A stretch of 55,611 nucleotides of DNA, taken from Thermoleophilia bacterium. GTDB lineage: Bacteria; Actinomycetota; Thermoleophilia; Solirubrobacterales; 70-9. The position numbers and the translations under genes were made by a program. Below, in pieces: positions 19,442 to 36,975 of the stretch. The notes beneath the pieces are model-generated. The model worked only from the letters and a program-made list of their open reading frames with translations. It made no database searches and was not told the DNA's origin. The first letter of the stretch is position 1, and each line of letters starts with the position of its first letter. The DNA lies in the NCBI GenBank assembly GCA_016649905.1, contig JAENWU010000001.1, positions 1 through 55,611 of the forward strand. Direction: 5' to 3'.

Positions 19442-19515
19442 CGCGGGGTGGAGCAGCCAGGTAGCTCGTCGGGCTCATAACCCGAAGGTCGCAGGTTCGA
19501 ATCCTGCCCCCGCTA
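19442..19515 (+). tRNA. Initiator tRNA-fMet (anticodon CAU)
   Basis: 74-nt cloverleaf with anticodon loop CTCATAA flanked by the GGG/CCC stem typical of initiators. There is a C1-U72 mismatch at the acceptor end. It is near-identical to E. coli tRNA-fMet as I recall it. CCA is not encoded. Confidence 0.93.
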
Positions 19516-19523
19516 TAGGACGG

Positions 19524-19556
19524 AAACCCGCTTATCAAGCGGGTTTTCGTGTTTTT
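19524..19556 (+). terminator. Intrinsic terminator after tRNA-fMet
   Basis: AAACCCGCT TATCA AGCGGGTTT followed by TCGTGTTTTT. Confidence 0.75.
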
Positions 19557-19678
19557 GGGGGACCTCAAAAACGGCGAAAAAAGGCGCTGGGGCAAGCTCT
19601 GGGGCAAGGTGAGGTCAAAGTGAGGTTGATTCCGAGCCTTGCGCAGGGCTTCCCGTCCGTCAACTTAGAGTTTCGGCG

Positions 19679-20566
19679 ATGACTCGATCCGAGGCCCTGC
19701 CTTCATCTGGAGTGCTGGAGGAAGTCCGGCGCCTGGCGGGCCCGTCAGCCGTGGTCCTGGGTGCCGCGCGCCTCGAAGGCGGCCAGCACGCGGACACCTG
19801 GAGAGTTGATACCGAGAATCCCGCGATCAGCGTTGTCGTCCGCCAGTTTCCGGTGGACGACCCTGCCCCCTTGCGTGAGCAGCGTGTACTGCGAGCCCTC
19901 GACGGACTCGGCGGTATGGCCCCGGTGCTGCTCGGCGGCGACCTGAACGGCCGATGGTCGAAGTACCCGACTTCTTTGATCAGCTGGCTTGACGGTCAGC
20001 CGGACATCACTCCGACTGACCCCAGGGGGTGGGCGCGCGAGTTAGGTCGCGCGCTCGCCGCGGTGCACACGGTCCCGACCGAGCGGCTGGCGGAATTGCC
20101 GAGCATCTTCGACCGCAGCGGAGGCTCTCAGGAGATATTGGGGGGCCCACTGGCGGCGGAAGTTCGGTCTCGCTGGTCACAGGTTGTTACGTCGCCGGAG
20201 GTGCTCACCCACTGCGATTACTGGTCGGGCAACGTCGTCTGGCGGGACGGAAGGCTCACGGGCATCGTCGACTGGTCGGACGGGTCACGCGGTCCACGTG
20301 GCTTCGACTTGGGCTGGTGCCGACTGGATCTCGTCCTCCTGTTCGACGAGCAAATTGCCGACGACTTTCTTGCGGCCTACGAAGCAGCGACCGGCCAGGC
20401 AGTCGGCGAGATGCGCCTTTGGGATACCTGGGCCGTCGCTCGGTCCGATGACGCGGTTGGGTCCTGGCCCCCGAACTACCTGCCGCTGGGCCGCGCCGAC
20501 CTCGATGAAGATGAGCTTCGGCGACGCCATGCGCAATGGACGGCACGCCTCAGAGAGCGGAGGTAA
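19679..20566 (+). CDS. Aminoglycoside/choline-kinase-type phosphotransferase (APH family)
   Basis: HADTWRV, catalytic loop HCDYWSGNVVW and IVDWSDGSRGPRGFDLG. Confidence 0.8.
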   Translation: MTRSEALPSSGVLEEVRRLAGPSAVVLGAARLEGGQHADTWRVDTENPAISVVVRQFPVDDPAPLREQRVLRALDGLGGMAPVLLGGDLNGRWSKYPTSLISWLDGQPDITPTDPRGWARELGRALAAVHTVPTERLAELPSIFDRSGGSQEILGGPLAAEVRSRWSQVVTSPEVLTHCDYWSGNVVWRDGRLTGIVDWSDGSRGPRGFDLGWCRLDLVLLFDEQIADDFLAAYEAATGQAVGEMRLWDTWAVARSDDAVGSWPPNYLPLGRADLDEDELRRRHAQWTARLRERR

Positions 20567-20958
20567 GCCCCCGCAAGTGAGATCGCCCAGCCCTTCCTGG
20601 GGCAAGCAATGGTGCAACAGGAACTCCACAGATGGGACTCGGTGCCTTTCAGGCCGGATTGCGGTTGACGATCACCTCGATCCGTTTCCAGGAGAATGGC
20701 TCCAGGAATGCCGATGCGCCGCCCAGGACCTTGAGCCGCCACCGATAGACGGTGTTGGGCGCTCAAGTCGATCGCCACCGGTGCGCTACGCCGCAGCTGG
20801 TCAAGTCCTAGTCGCGAGGAGATCGAGAAGCAGCTGCGAACCGACGGCCGCCTGCGCTCTCAGGAAGCGTGCCGCGAGGCCCCTTTGAGACTAGCCGCGT
20901 TCGTCGCAGCTGATGAGGCGATGCCCGGCCTCTTTGCGTGGTGGGGAGTCGGAATAAC

Positions 20959-20978
20959 TCAGAAATCTGATAATCTGA
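20959..20978. promoter_or_regulatory. Palindromic putative operator upstream of the Phd/VapC-like pair
   Basis: TCAGAAATCTGA (perfect palindrome) followed by a TAATCTGA half-site repeat, ending 4 nt before ATG 20983, in an A/T-rich patch. Confidence 0.4.
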
Positions 20979-20982
20979 CTGC

Positions 20983-21234
20983 ATGAAGCAGTTGAGCGCA
21001 ACCGATGCTTCCCGCCGGTTCTCAGAGGTCTTGGACGATGTGGAGCGGGGCGGGGAGTCCTATGTTGTTGTTCGCCACGGTCGCGCCGTGGCGACTATTG
21101 GTCCCGCGAGCGGCGGGACTGGGAAAGCGCTCAAGGAGGTGCTTCGCGCCAATCGGCCTGACGATGCCTGGGCGGGCGAGCTGCGCGAGCTTCGCGAGGG
21201 CATGGACCCTGTGACGGACCCCTGGCACGACTGA
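20983..21234 (+). CDS. Phd/YefM-type antitoxin
   Basis: 83 aa. MKQLSATDASRRFSEVLDDVERGGESYVVVRHGRAVATI matches the Phd/YefM N-terminal pattern. Its stop overlaps the PIN gene. Confidence 0.75.
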   Translation: MKQLSATDASRRFSEVLDDVERGGESYVVVRHGRAVATIGPASGGTGKALKEVLRANRPDDAWAGELRELREGMDPVTDPWHD

Positions 21235-21623
21235 TCCTTGACACGACGGTCCTGGTTGACGCCGAGCGCGGCGGCGATTCGCTGGAGGACGTGATCGATG
21301 ACGGCGACGACGTCGCTGTGGCGGCGATCACTGTGGCGGAGTTGTGGGTTGGCGTCCAGCTGGCTAAAGGACGCAGGCGGGAGAAGCGGGAGCGCTTTGT
21401 TGTGGCGGTTCTCGACGCTGTCTCGATTGAGTCCTACGACCTCAACGTGGCCGAAGCACATGCCGATCTGTTGGCGCACGTTCGGCGGGCAGGGACGCCA
21501 CGTGGCGCCCACGACCTCATCATCGCCGCGACGGCACGAGCCCAGGAGCGGCAGGTCGTGAGCTCCGACCAAAGCGGCTTTGCCGCGCTCCCTGGCGTCT
21601 CCCTCGTAAGCGACCTTAGCTAG
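21231..21623 (+). CDS. PIN-domain (VapC-like) toxin; start codon non-canonical or 5' end damaged
   Basis: (L)ILDTTVLVD..., HDLIIAATA and SSDQSGF are PIN acidic/structural motifs. The first ATG (21291) would delete the conserved N-terminal Asp. The only in-frame candidate is CTG 21231, overlapping the antitoxin stop. Confidence 0.65.
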   Translation: MILDTTVLVDAERGGDSLEDVIDDGDDVAVAAITVAELWVGVQLAKGRRREKRERFVVAVLDAVSIESYDLNVAEAHADLLAHVRRAGTPRGAHDLIIAATARAQERQVVSSDQSGFAALPGVSLVSDLS

Positions 21624-21720
21624 TGGTGTGACCGCCAACGTTTGCCGGTTTCCATAACCAGGCTCCAGCACCCCGCTGCCGAAGTGACTCCCCGAGCGCA
21701 ATCGACGATCGAAGGCGAAG

Positions 21721-35986: not shown

Positions 35987-36029
35987 CTCATAACCCGAAG
36001 GTCGCAGGTTCGAATCCTGCCCCCGCTAT
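35987..36029 (+). repeat. att-type direct repeat, copy E
   Basis: Perfect match to 19474-19516. Confidence 0.95.
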
Positions 36030-36037
36030 AGGAAAAA

Positions 36038-36063
36038 GCCCCGCTAACGCGGGGCTTTTTGTT
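36038..36063 (+). terminator. Intrinsic terminator carried with att copy E (intron-free twin of 30756-30782)
   Basis: GCCCCGC TAAC GCGGGGC followed by TTTTTGTT. Confidence 0.8.
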
Positions 36064-36100
36064 GGGGCAAATCGGCCGCCCCAGGAGTCCCGCCCTTGCC

Positions 36101-36172
36101 ACGCTCGTCTATGCGGACTATGCGCCGAGCCCCCATGAGGCCGACCTTCTGGAGCGGGCCTTCCGGCGCTAG
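36101..36172 (+). pseudogene. Tyrosine recombinase remnant (last 23 codons only)
   Basis: TLVYADYAPSPHEADLLERAFRR*. It is nucleotide-similar to 34898-34966 of the other integrase fragment. Confidence 0.7.
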
Positions 36173-36201
36173 CCTGGCCGCGTGGGGGAGGGGTACGGCC
36201 A

Positions 36202-36513
36202 GTGAGCCCAAGAACGGAGTTCGAGCTTGTGCTCTCTGATTCGGCAATCGTCTATGCGCGGCTCGACACCGAGCACGGAGAGGCGACTCGCTACGCGGTC
36301 ACGCTGGTCGCCGAAGAGAACGGCGAGCTGCGGACGGTCCGGGTCTACGACAACGCTCACGGAGAGCCCGAGATGCACCGATACAGCCTCGACGGCGAGA
36401 AGCAGCCGGCAGAGAAGCTCCCAGGAGCCACGCCGTCAGAGGGGTTTAACATGGCCTTGGACCTGATTATGAGCGGCTATACGGAGATGATCGACGGATG
36501 GCGACGCGGGTAG
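36202..36513 (+). CDS. Hypothetical protein, first gene of an overlapping pair
   Basis: 103 aa. LRTVRVYDNAHGEPEMHRYS... is a beta-rich N-half followed by a helical tail. It is reminiscent of the DUF6516/TumE-type pattern (YDN..H...H.H), from memory only. Confidence 0.55.
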   Translation: MSPRTEFELVLSDSAIVYARLDTEHGEATRYAVTLVAEENGELRTVRVYDNAHGEPEMHRYSLDGEKQPAEKLPGATPSEGFNMALDLIMSGYTEMIDGWRRG

Positions 36514-36797
36514 ACAGCACTCATTCAAGCGAGGCTTCGGGCCTGGCCTTCGAGCGCTTTCGCGATGCCCTTGAGGGACGAGCCACCGGCTATCCCCGAG
36601 GCGCGATCTTCGTCCCTTCCGACGCGCCATACACGCAGAAGACGTTGCTGCGCGCATTGAGGGAGGGACAGCCGGCAGTTGTCGTCTTCCCTGACGGTCA
36701 AGAGCGCATCGTTCGCGGCGAGTCTCCCGAGTCTCCCGGCGGCAGCCACCTTGCCGCTGCCCGCGCCTGGCTCGCCGGGCGCGGTTCGCGCGCCTAG
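36498..36797 (+). CDS. Hypothetical protein, second gene of an overlapping pair
   Basis: 99 aa with a 16-nt overlap with the upstream ORF. No motif recognised. Confidence 0.45.
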   Translation: MATRVDSTHSSEASGLAFERFRDALEGRATGYPRGAIFVPSDAPYTQKTLLRALREGQPAVVVFPDGQERIVRGESPESPGGSHLAAARAWLAGRGSRA

Positions 36798-36826
36798 AGG
36801 TTCTGGCTTCTGCCATAAGCCATACC

Positions 36827-36932
36827 CGTCGTCTTATTCGTCGTCTCATTCTGAATGAAACGCAGCGAATGTAGGTGACGCTAAACGGCTCTAGAAAGCC
36901 GAATAGACCTGAGCAGACCATGCGTGCTGTTG
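36827..36932 (+). repeat. Island right-arm module, variant F
   Basis: Same tandem 12-mers as variant E, then CTGAAT, hairpin GGCTCT-AG-AAAGCC (36887-36900), GAATAGACC and CATGCGTGC, abutting att copy F. Confidence 0.7.
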
Positions 36933-36975
36933 CTCATAACCCGAAGGTCGCAGGTTCGAATCCTGCCCCCGCTAT
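36933..36975 (+). repeat. att-type direct repeat, copy F (distal end of the ladder)
   Basis: Perfect match to 19474-19516. Confidence 0.95.

Follow-up and report, generated by a model that had tools for sequence, protein, structure and literature searches.

A probably decayed tandem array of integrative elements in an initiator-tRNA gene of Solirubrobacterales

Why should a bacterial genome carry the 3′ half of its initiator-tRNA gene six times over, always in the same orientation? This question is raised by a 55,611-nucleotide (nt) stretch of DNA from a Thermoleophilia bacterium of the order Solirubrobacterales (GenBank assembly GCA_016649905.1, contig JAENWU010000001.1, positions 1 to 55,611 of the forward strand), the whole of which we call the window and to which coordinates refer unless another locus is named. 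Our analysis makes it highly probable that site-specific integrative elements accumulated here in tandem, in the initiator-tRNA (tRNA-fMet) gene of a member of this order, and have since decayed. An intact tRNA gene is followed by co-oriented repeats of its own 3′ end, recombinase remnants lie in three of the five segments between the repeats (islands 3, 4 and 5), and the DNA concerned is variable and compositionally distinct.

The repeat is a 43-mer, CTCATAACCCGAAGGTCGCAGGTTCGAATCCTGCCCCCGCTAT, present in exactly six copies on the + strand with no mismatches (starting at 19474, 23777, 24850, 30705, 35987 and 36933) and matched in none of 100 dinucleotide-preserving shuffles. It spans the tRNA at 19441–19516 from the anticodon loop to one base beyond the discriminator. 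That tRNA has the anticodon CAT, a 1–72 mismatch and three G–C pairs in the anticodon stem, and thus fits an initiator. ARAGORN and Rfam call a tRNA at this site only, and all five extra copies lack the 5′ half; both the six perfect copies and the missing 5′ halves agree with the original prediction, which was made from the sequence before this analysis. Copies c3, c4 and c6 reach one base further 5′, to tRNA position 33, and c2 and c5 begin at position 34. Neither a search allowing up to three mismatches nor short-word BLAST with the whole tRNA found a further partial copy in the window. The G+C content of the islands is 0.59–0.68, versus 0.67–0.74 in most flanking DNA. The six cores, which bound islands 1 to 5 from left to right, are as follows.

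19441–19516, + strand: tRNA-fMet (initiator) gene (ARAGORN; Rfam tRNA, 63.9 bits), whose 3′ part, 19474–19516, is core c1
23777–23819, + strand: core c2 (43-mer match)
24850–24892, + strand: core c3 (43-mer match)
30705–30747, + strand: core c4 (43-mer match)
35987–36029, + strand: core c5 (43-mer match)
36933–36975, + strand: core c6 (43-mer match), followed by a third hairpin variant

What surrounds these cores became legible by comparison with 80 orthologous loci in which a Ppx/GppA phosphatase gene adjoins the tRNA. Nearly all come from metagenome-assembled genomes (MAGs) of Solirubrobacterales or related Thermoleophilia, some from whole chromosomes, and we cite these and other records by L numbers. 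Across loci a unit reads core, terminator hairpin, two tandem words, cargo, two tandem words, next core. The hairpin on the right side of the core is G+C-rich and carries a T-run; the top two terminator-like sites of the region are the hairpins after c1 and c4, and hairpins related to that of island 4 follow the tRNA in most relatives. The right-hand word pair lies about 60–95 nt from its core, and the left-hand pair at about −110 to −85 from the next one. We distinguish G-type words (TGGGGCAA), T-type (GGGTACYAA; GGGTACTAA in island 2), C-type (CGTCGTCTYA), W-type (CGTGGTTCC) and A-type (CCATCTAACA, in L071). Four of these types (G, T, C and W) occur in the window, together with one end typical of a large serine recombinase (LSR). 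Throughout the window, word pairs are confined to attachment (att) positions, the exceptions being single G-words at 20598 and 36063. The att segments of the islands are listed here.

19517–19658, + strand: left end (P′ arm) of island 1, with hairpin 19520–19550 and G-words TGGGGCAA at 19588 and 19600
23670–23776, + strand: right arm (P arm) of island 1, W-type, with CGTGGTTCC at 23672 and 23684
23820–24849, + strand: island 2, an internally deleted T-type element, with left-end segment 23977–24098 and T-words GGGTACTAA at 24746 and 24757
30534–30704, + strand: right end of island 3, a T-type skeleton of segment 30534–30655 plus the last 47 nt of the arm
30751–30777, + strand: left-end terminator hairpin of island 4; an identical stem-loop follows c5 at 36034–36060
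32705–32730, + strand: P′ arm of island 4, a degenerate C-type word pair, CGTCGTCTCAAT / AGCGTCTTATTT
35880–35986, + strand: right arm of island 4, C-type, with CGTCGTCTYA at 35881 and 35893
36030–36932, + strand: island 5, a C-type element deleted from the left arm into the integrase gene, with hairpin 36034–36060 and C-words at 36827 and 36839

The two ends of a unit carry matching words in three units of L078 (G/G), in L009 and L070 (T/T) and in island 4 (C/C), where the P′ words lie about 60–85 nt right of c4 once the intron described below is subtracted, a geometry shared with the other types. Integrase-bearing elements at the same tRNA have words of their own: T-like in L076, W in L075, A in L071 and G in L052, whose integrase is frameshifted. 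On either side of the core, repeated motifs thus stand at fixed distances, match within elements and differ between them. From position and repetition we presume the words to be arm-type integrase-binding sites, and the layout would be that expected of tyrosine integrases with differing arm specificities and one common core. Integrase N-terminal identity (21–25%) is lower than catalytic identity (30–38%), an indirect and indecisive probe of arm specificity. The non-coding G-type arms are 78% identical between genomes, as is ppx coding sequence (78%), whereas the ppx–tRNA spacer, used as a control, is 52% identical. Because, in addition, the arms do not diverge in step with ppx (rho 0.08), they appear to be constrained, horizontally exchanged, or both. 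A metagenome scan recovered the C-type arm on five contigs, none of which carries an integrase. On two of the five (L086, 9–160; L087, reverse-complemented, 787–940) the core equals that of the window for 28 nt and then differs. Such identity followed by host-specific sequence points to strand exchange near the anticodon loop, and the differences, in the T-stem and acceptor, suggest that this type of element also occurs in a host carrying another tRNA-fMet allele. In L075, a second tRNA-like 3′ fragment (...CCACAGGTTCGAATCCTGTCGGGCGCGC) lies about 165 nt right of the tRNA core, directly after the W-type words.

Read in these terms, the five islands record more than five events. Island 1 opens with G-words and closes with W-words, which marks it as a composite. 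Its hairpin at 19520–19550 is the best terminator-like site of the region, its left end is 94% identical to the post-tRNA flank in L047, and W-words also stand right after the tRNA in the integrase-bearing L075. The right-hand 875 nt of the 6.5-kb T/T island of L009 and a left-end segment found in L070 align collinearly with island 2, which is therefore an internal-deletion derivative of such an element; the first 7 nt of island 2 match an LSR-type junction. Island 3, with an LSR left end and a T-type right end, is a second composite. Its right end resembles island 2 over two repeats (D4, 84%; D3, 83%) and contains no words, words and cargo slot both being deleted. Islands 2 and 5 are alike in lying between two cores and keeping the right arm intact, the left-arm words of both being lost. 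With the two composites, the number of integrations rises to at least seven (G, W, T, LSR, T, C and C), so the original prediction of five islands was an undercount.

Two classes of recombinase have left remnants among these units.

34670–35005, + strand: C-terminal fragment of a tyrosine integrase, island 4 (translation; Pfam PF00589 at positions 95–169 of 172)
24854–25548, − strand: LSR pseudogene (Pfam Resolvase; tblastn and profile matches to the orthologues in L037, L046 and L074)

The integrase fragment of island 4, about 110 amino acids (aa) long, keeps the HxxR, H and Y residues and has lost the first Arg and everything N-terminal to it; its identity to the intact L076 homologue of 387 aa is 64%. 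Of a paralogous integrase, island 5 has kept just the final 24 codons (36098–36172). Both remnants point away from the tRNA, about 0.7–0.9 kb before the arm of the next core, and the intact L076 integrase has the same orientation. That gene lies at the same tRNA in a segment (L076, 4385–9391) where a SIR2-like/HerA defence pair precedes it and IS481 and IS110 insertions follow; Pfam flags no arm-binding domain in it. Since the full catalytic R-H-R-Y set survives in L076 and not in the window, we regard the window elements as remnants of a tyrosine-integrase family rather than functional members. The best 120 database homologues of the fragment (34673–35005) are all 97–193 aa long with scattered N-termini, some on megabase contigs, and truncated integrases of this family appear to be very common. 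We considered a conserved mini-integrase as an explanation and rejected it: beyond the scattered N-termini, one homologue is scrambled inside and another proves to be a full-length gene with a frameshift. The latter follows an HTH_17 gene in L083, and in L082 the same order of cargo and then integrase occurs at another tRNA.

The LSR has decayed as well. An N-terminal piece (25180–25548) and a C-terminal piece (24854–25297) remain of a frameshifted gene from which about 300 middle residues are gone, where an LSR is normally a single protein of about 500–600 aa. Intact orthologues of 565 aa with Resolvase, Recombinase and zinc-ribbon domains adjoin the tRNA in L037, L046 and L074; a frameshifted copy occurs in L069, and LSRs adjoin the last visible core in L039 and L025. 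The tRNA 3′ half, read in reverse complement, supplies the last 14 codons of the gene, so that the reading frame ends in ...AGAGFEPATFGL* (24854–24892 in the window; 9825–9863 in L037), its TGA stop pairing with the TCA of the anticodon loop. An LSR beside attL reading toward the target gene is found at c3 and in L037, L046, L074, L039 and L025. Because LSR and tyrosine-integrase remnants stand at identical cores, one core evidently serves two recombinase classes. Profiles run over the entire window detected no further tyrosine recombinase or LSR, and islands 1 and 2 contain no recombinase remnant; the assertion in the original prediction that every recombinase here is a fragment is upheld by the pieces at 24854–25548, 34670–35005 and 36098–36172. 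Apparent LSR C-terminal remnants near c4, c5, c6 and many relatives' cores, seen with an iterated profile, proved to be an artefact: a profile built on full-length LSRs leaves only about 20 core-encoded residues.

Island 4 also contains a complete group II intron, overlooked in the original prediction.

30782–32683, + strand: complete group II intron (Rfam RF02001, RF01998 and RF00029; D1–D4 and D5–D6 models)
31256–32662, + strand: reverse transcriptase (RT)/maturase open reading frame (ORF) of the intron (Pfam RVT_1 and GIIM; no endonuclease domain)

An ORF-less copy in L035, 91% identical, places its boundaries at about 30782/4 and 32680/3. The intron begins 5–7 nt past the hairpin 30752–30777 and its T-run, between the hairpin after c4 and the C-type words, and separates core c4 from its arm words by 1.9 kb; the L035 copy sits just upstream of T-type words. 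Ribozyme domains, an RT/maturase without an endonuclease and insertion downstream of a terminator-like hairpin are the marks of group IIC. Classed on these features rather than by phylogeny, the intron would behave like group IIC introns at terminators, homing to the T-run that precedes the att arm words.

The relatives show that the initiator-tRNA gene is a favoured target well beyond the window. The order Ppx–tRNA-fMet is conserved in most of the 80 loci and the DNA after the tRNA is hypervariable: when ORFs in the 10 kb downstream were clustered, the commonest cluster was present in only 12 of the 80. Within the same 10 kb most loci have one core and about 30 have at least one extra full or partial core (three cores in L079, four in L078), and the extra cores usually begin at tRNA position 28–34. 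These variable regions and multi-core loci together identify an order-wide insertion hotspot in which ladders such as ours are not unique. Cargo modules recur across the relatives in other orders and contexts. Those at the same tRNA include Dcm/Vsr/HATPase sets resembling restriction-modification systems, in twelve loci other than L076, and SIR2/HerA, both recognised by Pfam, and, on inspection of the sequences, HigB-like pairs and XRE-type proteins.

We propose that two kinds of element, one with a tyrosine integrase and one with an LSR, would have used a single core that begins at the anticodon loop and extends to the tRNA's 3′ end. The att site of the former would consist of core, terminator hairpin and word pairs flanking both sides; in the latter, the recombinase gene would enter the core from the opposite strand. 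Each integration would have rebuilt the tRNA with a 3′ half and terminator borne by the incoming element and pushed the former 3′ half distally. Deletions would later have taken away some arms and cores and the greater part of every integrase. Five segments between cores would be left, two of which are chimeric, and the hairpin of one att site would have received a group II intron by homing. Small two-gene modules occupy the slot between integrase and distal arm, where they probably persist as addictive or defensive genes. Nothing in the window can now excise these segments, which could move only with a cognate integrase supplied in trans or from a newly integrated neighbour. The arm anatomy and recombinase remnants support the view, put forward in the original prediction, that the extra copies are att scars of elements targeting the tRNA 3′ half, and six co-oriented cores beside one tRNA in a hypervariable locus support tandem accretion.

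Several observations weigh against this account. Right of c6 nothing is syntenic with the 80 loci except one distal gene (L022), and neither an empty site nor a conserved distal flank was found when sought among them. Core c6 is therefore at best a candidate for the original tRNA 3′ end. The window data contain no excision product, empty site or cognate integrase for this genome, and binding of integrase by the words is read from their position and repetition. All five displaced cores have stayed perfect while the integrases decayed heavily. In relatives, no recombinase is detectable in most units bounded by arms, a pattern that repeated independent decay fits less easily than a trans-acting system does. 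Relatives with the same genes and no repeats had also been singled out as evidence that would tell against accretion, and L041 partly answers that description: its APH, Phd/PIN and RHH/ParE′ modules (3414–5953) have no cores between them, although their order is permuted and ParE is truncated. An RHH/ParE module lies near a core in L009, L070 and L012, beside the same T-type arm in the first two, and together with the permutation and truncation this makes secondary deletion in L041 the better reading.

The trans-acting alternative would make the locus a tRNA-anchored cassette platform, in which integrase-less units of core plus arms are inserted and excised in trans and genes are actively shuffled, in an integron-like or cis/trans-mobilizable-like manner. 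We think this improbable, and accord similarly low credence to its broader form, an order-wide Solirubrobacterales family of integrase-less word-armed units reshuffled by cognate integrases encoded elsewhere, with the window as a partly degraded example. What speaks for the platform is that 24 units in relatives (L003 to L079) have G-type arms on both sides and no detectable recombinase, three of them in tandem in L078 (oriented 11947, 15965 and 20473), and that a tyrosine-recombinase profile run on six-frame pieces of at least 25 aa found no integrase remnants in these G-type islands. The coding-like conservation of the arms and its independence from host divergence, the varied order and position of the modules across genomes, and the perfection of every displaced core in the window point the same way. 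Yet the small units of the window are deletion derivatives, as the integrase tail of island 5 and the collinearity of island 2 with a larger element show, and both of these have lost their left-arm words. Elements of the same architecture do carry integrases in L076, L075, L071 and L052, no trans-acting integrase was identified, and the truncation of the top integrase homologues at many points bespeaks frequent decay. An integron in the usual sense does not fit either: the only tyrosine-recombinase signal is the island 4 fragment, and the repeats are tRNA 3′ halves with asymmetric arms, although no attC model was run. Decayed accretion remains our preferred account.

An assembly artefact, in which islands of different strains were concatenated at the shared 43-bp core so that the tandem order is unreal, is very unlikely. 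The relatives are nearly all metagenome-assembled, the window possibly too, and repeats are a classic cause of misassembly; but each internal junction joins two specific flanks that fit the att anatomy, and multi-core arrays occur in records titled whole chromosomes (four cores in L078, OY969094.1; three in L079). A 43-bp repeat is moreover shorter than typical reads and k-mers, so such junctions are normally spanned. We give hardly any credence to local duplication or unequal crossing-over of the tRNA 3′ region followed by unrelated insertions without site-specific integration, since identical cores and similar flanks (the hairpins after c4 and c5; the arms of c2, c5 and c6; those of c3 and c4) invite it but distinct word types recur with the same geometry in unrelated genomes, recombinase genes or remnants stand where expected, and the repeat boundary is the anticodon loop in almost all loci.

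The cargo of the islands is listed here by position.

19679–20566, + strand: aminoglycoside-type phosphotransferase (APH), island 1 (Pfam PF01636, 1.1e-30)
20983–21234 and about 21231–21623, + strand: Phd antitoxin and PIN toxin, island 1 (Pfam PF02604 and PF01850, both above cut-off)
21721–23620, + strand: ORFs of 402, 102 and 121 aa, function unassigned, island 1 (no meaningful library match)
24144–24428 and 24432–24722, + strand: RHH-like and ParE-like genes, island 2 (weak RHH; ParE 21.5 bits against a 23-bit cut-off)
25536–26288 and 26305–26907, − strand: AbiEii and AbiEi, island 3 (Pfam, PADLOC)
27568–27876, − strand: C-terminal fragment of an aromatic-ring hydroxylase, island 3 (Pfam PF21274)
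28408–29442, + strand: GT2 glycosyltransferase, island 3 (Pfam PF00535)
33531–34159, + strand: DUF4160/DUF2442 pair, island 4 (Pfam, 7.7e-22 and 3.9e-15)
35002–35439 and 35436–35873, + strand: DUF6932 gene and XRE-type helix-turn-helix gene, in the slot between integrase and arm of island 4 (Pfam)
36202–36513 and 36498–36797, + strand: DUF7718 gene (103 aa) and 99-aa ORF, island 5 (DUF7718 by Pfam)

A two-gene module stands directly before the distal arm in islands 1, 2, 4 and 5. The original prediction described the cargo as mostly pairs of toxin–antitoxin (TA) or Abi type. Several such pairs hold, but APH, the GT2 glycosyltransferase and the 402-aa protein are not TA genes. Pfam confirms Phd/PIN, AbiEi/AbiEii and DUF4160/DUF2442 as pairs, and PADLOC independently recognises AbiE; among TA families, Phd, PIN and AbiEi pass their thresholds. 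AbiEii was assigned to the right family, though the gene is not intact, lacking about 50 N-terminal codons relative to a 303-aa orthologue in L046. The RHH/ParE pair is present, with ParE below its Pfam cut-off and a weak RHH call. A proposed pairing of a nucleotidyltransferase with an XRE regulator survives as an adjacent pair with that regulator, the partner being named DUF6932 by Pfam and matching the PADLOC candidate defence family PDC-M63A (2e-13). The pair of 103 and 99 aa, formerly without a family, now has DUF7718 as its first member, and neither it nor the 102/121-aa pair has a TA match; the label 'RelE-like' for the latter has no support in any library. The 402-aa ORF, the 102/121-aa pair, a 174-aa ORF and the 99-aa ORF have no meaningful match in Pfam, PADLOC or NCBIfam. 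A purE hit to the 102-aa ORF, at 17 bits where the cut-off is 150, we dismissed as noise. L026 and L003 carry the 102/121-aa pair as well, and APH homologues are positioned elsewhere in L041, L027 and L021. PIN probably starts at a CTG overlapping the Phd stop, and the identical CTGA overlap occurs in L041.

Three inverted repeats (33260–33341, 32764–32902 and 32810–32860, with arms of 39, 23 and 24 nt) occupy part of the 0.85 kb, otherwise unannotated, that separates the DUF4160 gene from the intron. Besides the third hairpin variant, the DNA right of c6 (36976–39302) contains what looks by eye like an N-terminal piece of an FMN-reductase-like gene, on the − strand, and an ORF of 666 aa that matches no family and lacks homologues throughout the 80 loci. 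The window contains two further tRNA genes upstream, Gly-GCC (10999–11079) and Leu-TAA (16252–16337). We rejected an ORF adjoining the latter as an integrase; it has a short DNA repeat in common with the integrase tail and encodes a TPP-dependent enzyme.

The locus offers an unusually readable record of how tRNA-linked islands grow and decay in Solirubrobacterales, which our comparison covers almost wholly through uncultured MAGs. The anatomy of core, hairpin and words assigns each junction to an element type, so that composite islands and lost cores become recognisable, and the word types are a practical handle for delimiting islands in these genomes and for probing arm-site specificity; current concepts stay as they are. 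Convergence has brought tyrosine and serine recombinases to a single 43-bp target, the small modules of TA-like type keep to a fixed slot by the distal arm and outlive their integrases, and a group II intron appears to exploit an att-site terminator for homing. The same tRNA is a hotspot throughout the order for restriction-modification, SIR2–HerA and Abi cargo. Should units prove to be mobilised in trans after all, the locus would be a tRNA-anchored platform of cassettes of several specificities for TA and defence genes, functionally parallel to integrons.

How does this array compare with systems already described? The attP sites of phages lambda and L5 combine a core with arm-type sites bound by the N-terminal domain of the integrase. 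The units described here likewise have a short core and repeated motifs at fixed distances on both sides, differing by integrase specificity, whereas their arm sites are putative and recognised from sequence.

At the ssrA gene of Dehalococcoides, tandem islands are delimited by repeats of the 3′ end of the small-RNA gene (PMC3146451). Both loci have tandem islands past a single-copy small-RNA gene, direct repeats of its 3′ end, a hypervariable zone and, beside attL, a reverse-strand serine recombinase, which in Dehalococcoides is about 540 aa long. There an integration module is missing from about half of the islands, which are read as cis-mobilizable or fixed, and units without one occur here as well. 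Unlike that system, the target here is an initiator tRNA, the repeat is 43 bp rather than 20 bp, word-bearing tyrosine-integrase elements use the core of the LSR element, and the LSR reading frame terminates inside the core; the Dehalococcoides cargo is reductive dehalogenases where ours is TA/Abi-type modules.

Prochlorococcus tycheposons provide a second parallel: older tRNA-inserted elements are displaced distally and leave partial tRNAs and fragmented integrases (bioRxiv 10.1101/2020.12.28.424599). Tyrosine-recombinase elements at tRNA genes, partial tRNAs between successive insertions and broken integrases are common to both. The host lineage and integrase family differ, however, our locus has legible att arms of several word types, and there is no evidence in it of replication or packaging modules or of present activity.

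Streptococcal cis-mobilizable elements (CIMEs) are att-bounded segments without recombination genes, derived from decayed integrative and conjugative or integrative and mobilizable elements (PMC5704250; PMC7563491). The islands of the window are similarly att-bounded, free of functional recombination genes, in tandem with related elements and products of decay. They differ in that they are recognised from sequence and that one arm is lost (islands 2, 3 and 5) or split by the intron (island 4), so that islands 2 to 5 may not even be recombination substrates.

Finally, group IIC introns are known to insert after intrinsic terminators (PMC1702495; PMC4748821). The intron of island 4 shares with them the absence of an endonuclease domain, insertion a few bases past a G+C-rich hairpin and T-run, and a second copy at an equivalent site elsewhere. 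What differs is that the terminator here is part of the att site of a mobile element, so that the core has been split from its arm sites. Arrays of this kind are already known; this one stands out for a core used by two recombinase classes, for arm words of several specificities and for an att site that contains an intron.

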